Below, one piece after another: positions 53,601 to 54,011 of a stretch of DNA of 64,000 nucleotides (within the stretch, counting starts at the first letter, position 1; the number at the start of each line of letters is the position of its first letter). The notes under the pieces are model-generated. The model did no database searches, was not told the origin of the DNA, and was given only the letters and a program-made list of their open reading frames with translations. Source of the DNA: Escherichia phage vB_EcoM_112; the sequence record NC_024125.2, one strand, 5' to 3'. Position numbers and translations under genes: made by a program.

Positions 53601-54011
53601 GCAATTGTTTCTTATGGCCATTTAGTTCAGGCGAATGACAGCTATTCAACATATGTTCGCGATGTTTATGTTCGTTCTGATATTCGTGTTAAAAAAGACC
53701 TTGTTAAATTTGAAAATGCTTCTGAGAAGCTTTCCAAAATTAATGGTTACACTTATATGCAGAAGCGAGGCCTAGATGAAGAAGGCAATCAGAAATGGGA
53801 ACCTAACGCCGGTTTAATTGCTCAAGAAGTTCAAGCTATTTTACCAGAATTAGTTGAAGGCGACCCGGATGGTGAAGCTTTACTTCGTTTGAACTATAAC
53901 GGTGTAATTGGTTTAAATACAGCTGCAATCAATGAGCATACTGCAGAAATTGCAGAACTTAAGTCAGAGATTGAAGAGCTTAAAAAAATAGTTAAATCAT
54001 TGTTAAAATAA
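50667..54011 (+). CDS. 37: Long tail fibre distal subunit gp37 with C-terminal intramolecular chaperone domain
   Basis: 1114 aa; conserved N-terminus [21 protein letters not shown]; C-terminal ~111 aa starts SDIRVKKDL (S74-type signature). Confidence 0.9.

Follow-up and report, generated by a model that had tools for sequence, protein, structure and literature searches.

The window analysed here is a stretch of 64,000 nucleotides from Escherichia phage vB_EcoM_112 (NC_024125.2), a T-even-type O157:H7 phage (PMC4241651). Its tail-fibre genes lie in the order 34-35-36-37-38-t, as they do in T4, with gp36 and a gp35 homologue, the latter assigned by position and by synteny with T4, encoded upstream of gp37. 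Gene 37 encodes a precursor of 119.6 kDa that matches the family annotated 'long tail fiber protein distal subunit' and is identical in sequence to the database protein of this phage (Table 1); its nearest match in the phage BLAST collection is the gp37 of wV7 (93.7%). From the TCT codon of Ser1004 the 1114-residue protein reads S-D-I-R-V-K-K-D-L and continues for 111 residues to the TAA stop codon at 54009-54011, so that this tail is the extreme C-terminus of the fibre protein. A sequence-only reading of the same DNA had proposed that the tail, beginning SDIRVKKDL at position 53676 and about 111 residues long, is an S74-type intramolecular chaperone domain that cleaves itself off, and both its coordinates and its residue count are exact. 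The genome paper of vB_EcoM_112 makes no mention of a C-terminal gp37 domain (PMC4241651).

Table 1. Features of the gene 37-gene 38 region, in positions of the window
Feature	Position	Strand	Basis
Gene 37, long tail fibre distal subunit precursor	50667..54011	+	ORF; PHROG 1699, E 0; AHY83453.1
Predicted mature gp37, residues 1-1003, 107.2 kDa, ending ...RDVYVR	50667..53675	+	Inferred from alignment with the S16 and fPS sites
gp37 distal tip, approximately residues 921-1003, homologue of the S16 gp37 beta-helical tip, the carrier of gp38	53427..53675	+	phmmer against 6F45_A; PMC6851490
Predicted scissile bond Arg1003-Ser1004	53673..53678	+	Homology to S16, fPS and T5 sites
Ser1004, predicted catalytic nucleophile	53676..53678	+	Invariant in alignments; PF13884 profile position 1
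Lys1009, predicted general base of the Ser-Lys dyad (S-x4-K)	53691..53693	+	Invariant; spacing of T5 Ser1264/Lys1269
C-terminal intramolecular chaperone domain, residues 1004-1114, 12.4 kDa, predicted to be released	53676..54008	+	
Long C-terminal helix, residues 1077-1113, predicted central trimeric coiled coil	53895..54005	+	DSSP on monomer model; T5 analogy
Intercistronic hairpin AGGGGC-UUCG-GCCCCU, between the gene 37 stop and the gene 38 ribosome-binding site GGAGG (54033-54037)	54016..54031	+	
Gene 38, tail-fibre adhesin of T2 type, 258 aa, predicted to dock on the gp37 tip	54043..54819	+	Gp38_N, GP38; 9V85; 6F45_D

Gene 38 starts 31 nt downstream of gene 37. Its product contains the Pfam families Gp38_N (PF21721, residues 1-40, E 1.3e-19) and GP38 (PF05268, E 4.9e-72) and is matched by the gp38 of PP01 (PDB 9V85, E 2e-137) and by that of S16 (6F45_D, E 3e-50), with W7, W20 and W35 aligned with the S16 tryptophans. 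The program-made list of open reading frames starts gene 38 at an ATG at 54013 (268 aa, 54013-54819). Given that the alignments with Gp38_N and with S16 gp38 both begin at the first residue of the shorter protein, that GGAGG lies 5 nt upstream of its ATG, and that RB69 and wV7 are annotated from the equivalent ATG, the true start is almost certainly that at 54043, which gives 258 residues. No entry identical to this 258-residue protein was present in the protein collection searched. Over residues 37-258 it differs from PP01 gp38 (9V85) at few positions (for example S to R, A to S and N to A), with one single-residue indel beside a Q/G substitution, which fits the reported O157:H7 specificity of vB_EcoM_112 (PMC4241651). 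The hairpin between the two genes has a predicted folding energy of -16.2 kcal/mol (z -2.3) and is kept in RB69 and wV7, with a shorter-stem variant, GAGGGC-TTCG-GCCCTC, in T2; it probably belongs to the class of stable UUCG hairpins between genes that are typical of T4-type transcripts. The ten extra codons of the 54013 start would fall inside it.

The SD...K motif occurs once in gp37, at residue 1004. It is expected 0.25 times per gp37 by composition and is present in 21% of shuffled gp37 sequences; by itself this six-residue motif is weak and not significant, and the case for the domain therefore rests on profile and fold. The Pfam family PF13884 (Peptidase_S74), described as 'chaperone of endosialidase', has a curated gathering cutoff of 22 bits and matches whole gp37 at residues 1004-1063 with 48.5 bits (E 1.1e-12) and the 111-residue tail alone with 53.9 bits (E 2.2e-14). 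The match spans positions 1-57 of the 58 in the profile and places Ser1004 at position 1, the domain boundary. There is a sharp shift in composition there: the tail has 10.8% Lys, 13.5% Glu and 12.6% Leu, whereas the remainder of gp37 has 4.0, 2.9 and 5.1%, respectively. This profile search had been suggested in the sequence-only reading, with the lack of a significant match as grounds for giving the domain up; the match is instead a clear one, and the profile, the fold comparison and the homology to S16 agree in placing an S74-type domain at the C-terminus of gp37.

In the alignment with distant homologues, made possible by a search with the 111-residue query that returned 22 mostly short proteins, Ser1004, Asp1005, Arg1007 and Lys1009 are invariant, and the S, D, R and K of SDxRxK are likewise conserved when the window, T2 and S16 gp37 sequences are aligned. 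A Ser-Lys dyad with S-x4-K spacing, that of Ser1264 and Lys1269 in T5, is found where the domain begins. With the 111 residues as query, matches were obtained to the extreme C-termini of 33 PHROG families, mostly annotated as tail proteins. The 22 homologues did not suffice for a survey, and the spread of the domain was taken instead from tblastn, which gave a lower bound of 1366 phage records, spread over many genera.

The fold was examined in an AlphaFold2 monomer model of gp37 residues 999-1114 (116 residues, mean pLDDT 85.6), the domain itself working as an intertwined trimer. The model consists, in order, of a short helix, a beta-hairpin with strands at model residues 30-38 and 44-51, a second small alpha/beta element and a C-terminal helix of 37 residues, assigned by DSSP to residues 79-115 of the model at a pLDDT of 92-97. 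It thus presents the predicted equivalent of the S74 fold, a mixed alpha/beta part with a beta-hairpin followed by a long helix, and Foldseek matched it to 7DC3 (E 1e-5) and to 3GW6 (probability up to 0.92). The long helix is predicted to form a central trimeric coiled coil, such as is present in the T5 chaperone (PMC4690869). Searches of the PDB with phmmer and with a 9-sequence profile found S16 gp37, the MyRF ICA domain and the fibre 8JOV; endoNF, T5 and GA-1 were not found by these searches, and the link to them is therefore made only by structure comparison. The sequence identity of the window domain to K1F endosialidase (3GW6), T5 pb1 (4UW8) and the GA-1 neck appendage (3GUD) is only 13-20%. 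At 111 residues it is shorter than the T5 domain of 133, and its predicted beta-hairpin is short where that of T5 extends into 50-Å 'tentacles'. Furthermore, the mature tip of K1F, T5 and GA-1 binds the receptor itself, whereas the tip in the window binds a separate adhesin. The MyRF ICA domain (7DC3) belongs to a human protein with another biological role and shares fold and family only.

The closest solved relative by sequence is the gp37 of S16 (PDB 6F45 construct). With the tip and domain (53376-54008) as query, phmmer matched 6F45_A over query residues 18-211 with E 1e-45, the match beginning at gp37 residue 921, and the domains are 56% identical. Both phages have the same arrangement of a beta-helical tip, S-D-x-R-x-K-K, an alpha/beta part, a long helix and a stop codon, followed by the gp38 gene, and the domains are of similar length (113 residues in S16, 111 here). 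The tryptophans of the gp38 attachment domain, which in the known tip architecture insert into pockets of the gp37 tip (PMC6851490), are common to both. Nevertheless, the two systems differ in that the window gp37 has 11 extra residues in the tip just upstream of the domain and in that its adhesin is like that of PP01, not that of S16. On these sequence features, gp37 and gp38 belong to the T2/S16-type distal long tail fibre, in which gp37 is capped by a gp38 adhesin that is encoded by the next gene and consists of an N-terminal attachment domain and a specificity domain with glycine-rich motifs; by homology to 6F45 the gp37 domain would be trimeric. T2 itself has a gp37 of 1341 residues with PF13884 at residues 1243-1300, followed, as in the window, by a UUCG hairpin and a gp38 adhesin gene. 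Over the C-terminal 150 residues, domain included, the identity to T2 is 32%, and the T2 domain is 99 residues long, lacking the last 11 or so residues of the helix. Subtypes of paired gp37 C-termini and gp38 N-termini are described in PMC3157838, and the T2 pair is probably of a different subtype from that of the window.

S16 gp37 ends in an intramolecular chaperone of 113 residues that is reported to be autocleaved at DLNVS^SDRRIKK (^ marking the bond), exposing the surface on which gp38 docks (PMC7917993, citing Dunne et al. 2018). The corresponding sequence in the window is DVYVR^SDIRVKK, in T2 NVYIR^SDIRLKS, and in the Tequatrovirus fPS phages DVYIR^SDGRLKI, which is the predicted cleavage site of those phages (PMC7917993). 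The site in the window is placed by alignment only, and the residue before the serine is Arg here and Ser in S16. Autoproteolytic chaperones are described on the fibres of both S16 and T5 (PMC7289586). In T5 pb1 the cut falls between Thr1263 and Ser1264, the serine being activated by Lys1269; the S1264A substitution blocks cleavage, as the equivalent Ser-to-Ala change does in endosialidase (PMC4690869). An Arg from the neighbouring chain senses correct folding in T5, and an upstream Arg 'folding sensor' together with an Asp is described for T5 and K1F (PMC4690869). Candidates for such a sensor in the window are R998, D999 and R1003. The Asp at -5 does not vary among the aligned homologues, but T2 has Asn there and lacks the Arg and Asp at -6 and -5, respectively. 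For T2 and T6, PMC3157838 describes the C-terminus of gp37 as 'proteolytically cleaved', and the title of a paper cited there reports the proteolytic processing of T2 gp37 (Drexler, Riede and Henning 1986, J Mol Biol 191:267). The self-cleavage before the serine that the sequence-only reading had predicted is therefore supported by the fold, by the S16 homology and by the S16, fPS, T2 and T6 literature, still as a prediction for this phage, and T2 gp37, with whose processing it saw a fit, carries PF13884 as well.

Residues 1004-1114 of gp37 are, with high probability, a C-terminal intramolecular chaperone of the endosialidase-chaperone or peptidase S74 family that trimerises, cleaves itself at Arg1003-Ser1004 and leaves, whereupon gp38 docks. 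Following the homologues, trimerisation of the domain would bring the three gp37 chains into register, and its small alpha/beta part and the coiled coil of approximately 37-residue helices would nucleate the folding of the beta-helical tip, starting at the C-terminal end. After correct folding of the tip, Ser1004, activated by Lys1009, would attack the Arg1003-Ser1004 bond in each chain, the 12.4-kDa domain would dissociate as a trimer and a new C-terminal face of gp37 (...RDVYVR) would become exposed. A single copy of gp38 would then dock on this face through its N-terminal three-helix attachment domain and the conserved tryptophans. Other chaperones such as gp57A may also be needed.

Given that the residue at -1 differs from that of S16 and that cleavage in vB_EcoM_112 is a prediction, it could be argued that an S74-like domain is present and is not removed, staying on the virion fibre in a structural or receptor-proximal role. 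However, this is very unlikely: the Ser-Lys dyad is intact and invariant, the gp37 of T2 and T6 is reported to be processed, and in S16 it is the surface exposed by cleavage that receives the adhesin, so that the window gp38, with its conserved attachment domain, would have nowhere to bind on a fibre that retained the domain. Alternatively, the C-terminal piece could be removed in trans by a host or phage protease, the domain being a folding and registration module only, and the statement on T2 and T6 in PMC3157838 indeed names no protease. This is just as improbable, since cleavage in T5 pb1 and in endosialidase is lost when the equivalent serine is replaced by alanine, the processing of S16 gp37 is described as autocleavage, and S-x4-K is invariant across distant homologues.

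The frequency with which the motif turns up in shuffled gp37 sequences also leads to a third possibility, that SDxxxK arose by chance and the tail is simply an unrelated coiled-coil end of a fibre. The PF13884 match, the matches to PHROG C-termini and the fold comparison refute this, and its probability is negligible, by far the lowest of the three. Self-cleavage by an S74-type chaperone remains the preferred explanation.

The sequence-only reading had further held that the domain explains the length of 1114 residues against 1026 for T4 gp37, and this does not stand: T4 gp37 is unrelated beyond residue 646 of the window protein, and T2 gp37, with the same domain, reaches 1341 residues. BLASTP aligned residues 1-646 of the window gp37 with residues 1-743 of T4 gp37 at 34% identity with 111 gap positions, so that the homology is confined to the N-terminal 650 or so residues. 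In its C-terminal third T4 gp37 has a collar domain and fibre repeats (PF07484, PF03335) that are unrelated to the window protein; a profile search of T4 gp37 gave no match to PF13884 and one of the window gp37 gave neither PF07484 nor PF03335. A T4-type gp37, with a self-contained needle tip that binds the receptor and is folded by gp38 as chaperone, was considered as a candidate for the window protein and rejected, there being no C-terminal homology to the T4 collar, fibre repeats or needle tip. In T4 the annotation makes gp38 a separate tail-fibre assembly protein, unrelated to the T2-type gp38 adhesin. The differences in gp37 length reflect mosaic shaft and tip modules and not the 111 residues, and the predicted mature gp37 of the window, at 1003 residues, is shorter than T4 gp37.

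This mosaicism is apparent when gp37 is compared with that of RB69, a phage of another genus (Mosigvirus), in blocks of 50 residues. Identity is 88-100% over residues 1-250 and 42-72% over residues 700-1000, and it rises to 98, 100 and 92% in the last three blocks (residues 1001-1114), which are essentially the domain. The contrast between a domain at 92-100% and a shaft at 42-72% identifies the domain as a module that is conserved and sits at a mosaic boundary. The comparison with wV7 gives 88-100% identity for most blocks and 72% for the block of residues 251-300. At the DNA level the domain is approximately 97-98% identical to RB69, AR1 and PP01. Its codon differences are synonymous and nonsynonymous in ratios of 4:2 against RB69 and 10:3 against wV7, and the domain is under purifying selection. 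The chaperone domain and the start of gene 38 act together like a conserved cassette next to variable modules. The fall in identity to RB69 from the domain blocks to the adjacent shaft raises the possibility that the near-identity of the domain across genera serves as a homology arm for the swapping of whole adhesins or fibre tips between phages. In addition, the released 12-kDa trimer might act after cleavage; the proposal as a whole is improbable. Recombination at conserved motifs of this locus has been proposed before, and only the post-cleavage role would be new, for which nothing here gives support.

The chaperone feature of gp37 is already known for T2/S16-type fibres and no new biology follows from it: in S16 the domain, the cleavage and the part that the domain plays in attaching gp38 are all established, C-terminal cleavage of gp37 is reported for T2 and T6, and the public annotations of homologues already carry PF13884. 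Its value lies in correct annotation, in that the predicted mature gp37 of this O157:H7 biocontrol phage is residues 1-1003 (approximately 107 kDa) and not the 1114-residue precursor. By analogy with the homologues, constructs for fibre engineering or expression would have to keep the 111-residue domain with Ser1004 and Lys1009, both for trimer folding and for the gp38 docking face.

Two further observations concern other parts of the fibre genes. Residues 59-124 of the gp35 homologue (48821-49939) match the Pfam family ILEI (PF15711, 'Interleukin-like EMT inducer') with E 1.2e-7 and 32.6 bits against a threshold of 27, a label not expected on the hinge of a phage fibre, for which a fold in common may be the reason. 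Within the gp37 shaft, the family Gp34_trimer (PF21446) is found at 52014-52334 (residues 450-556, E 8.5e-8); T2 gp37 has it as well, and T4 gp37 gives a weaker match, which suggests a domain module common to the proximal and distal half-fibres.
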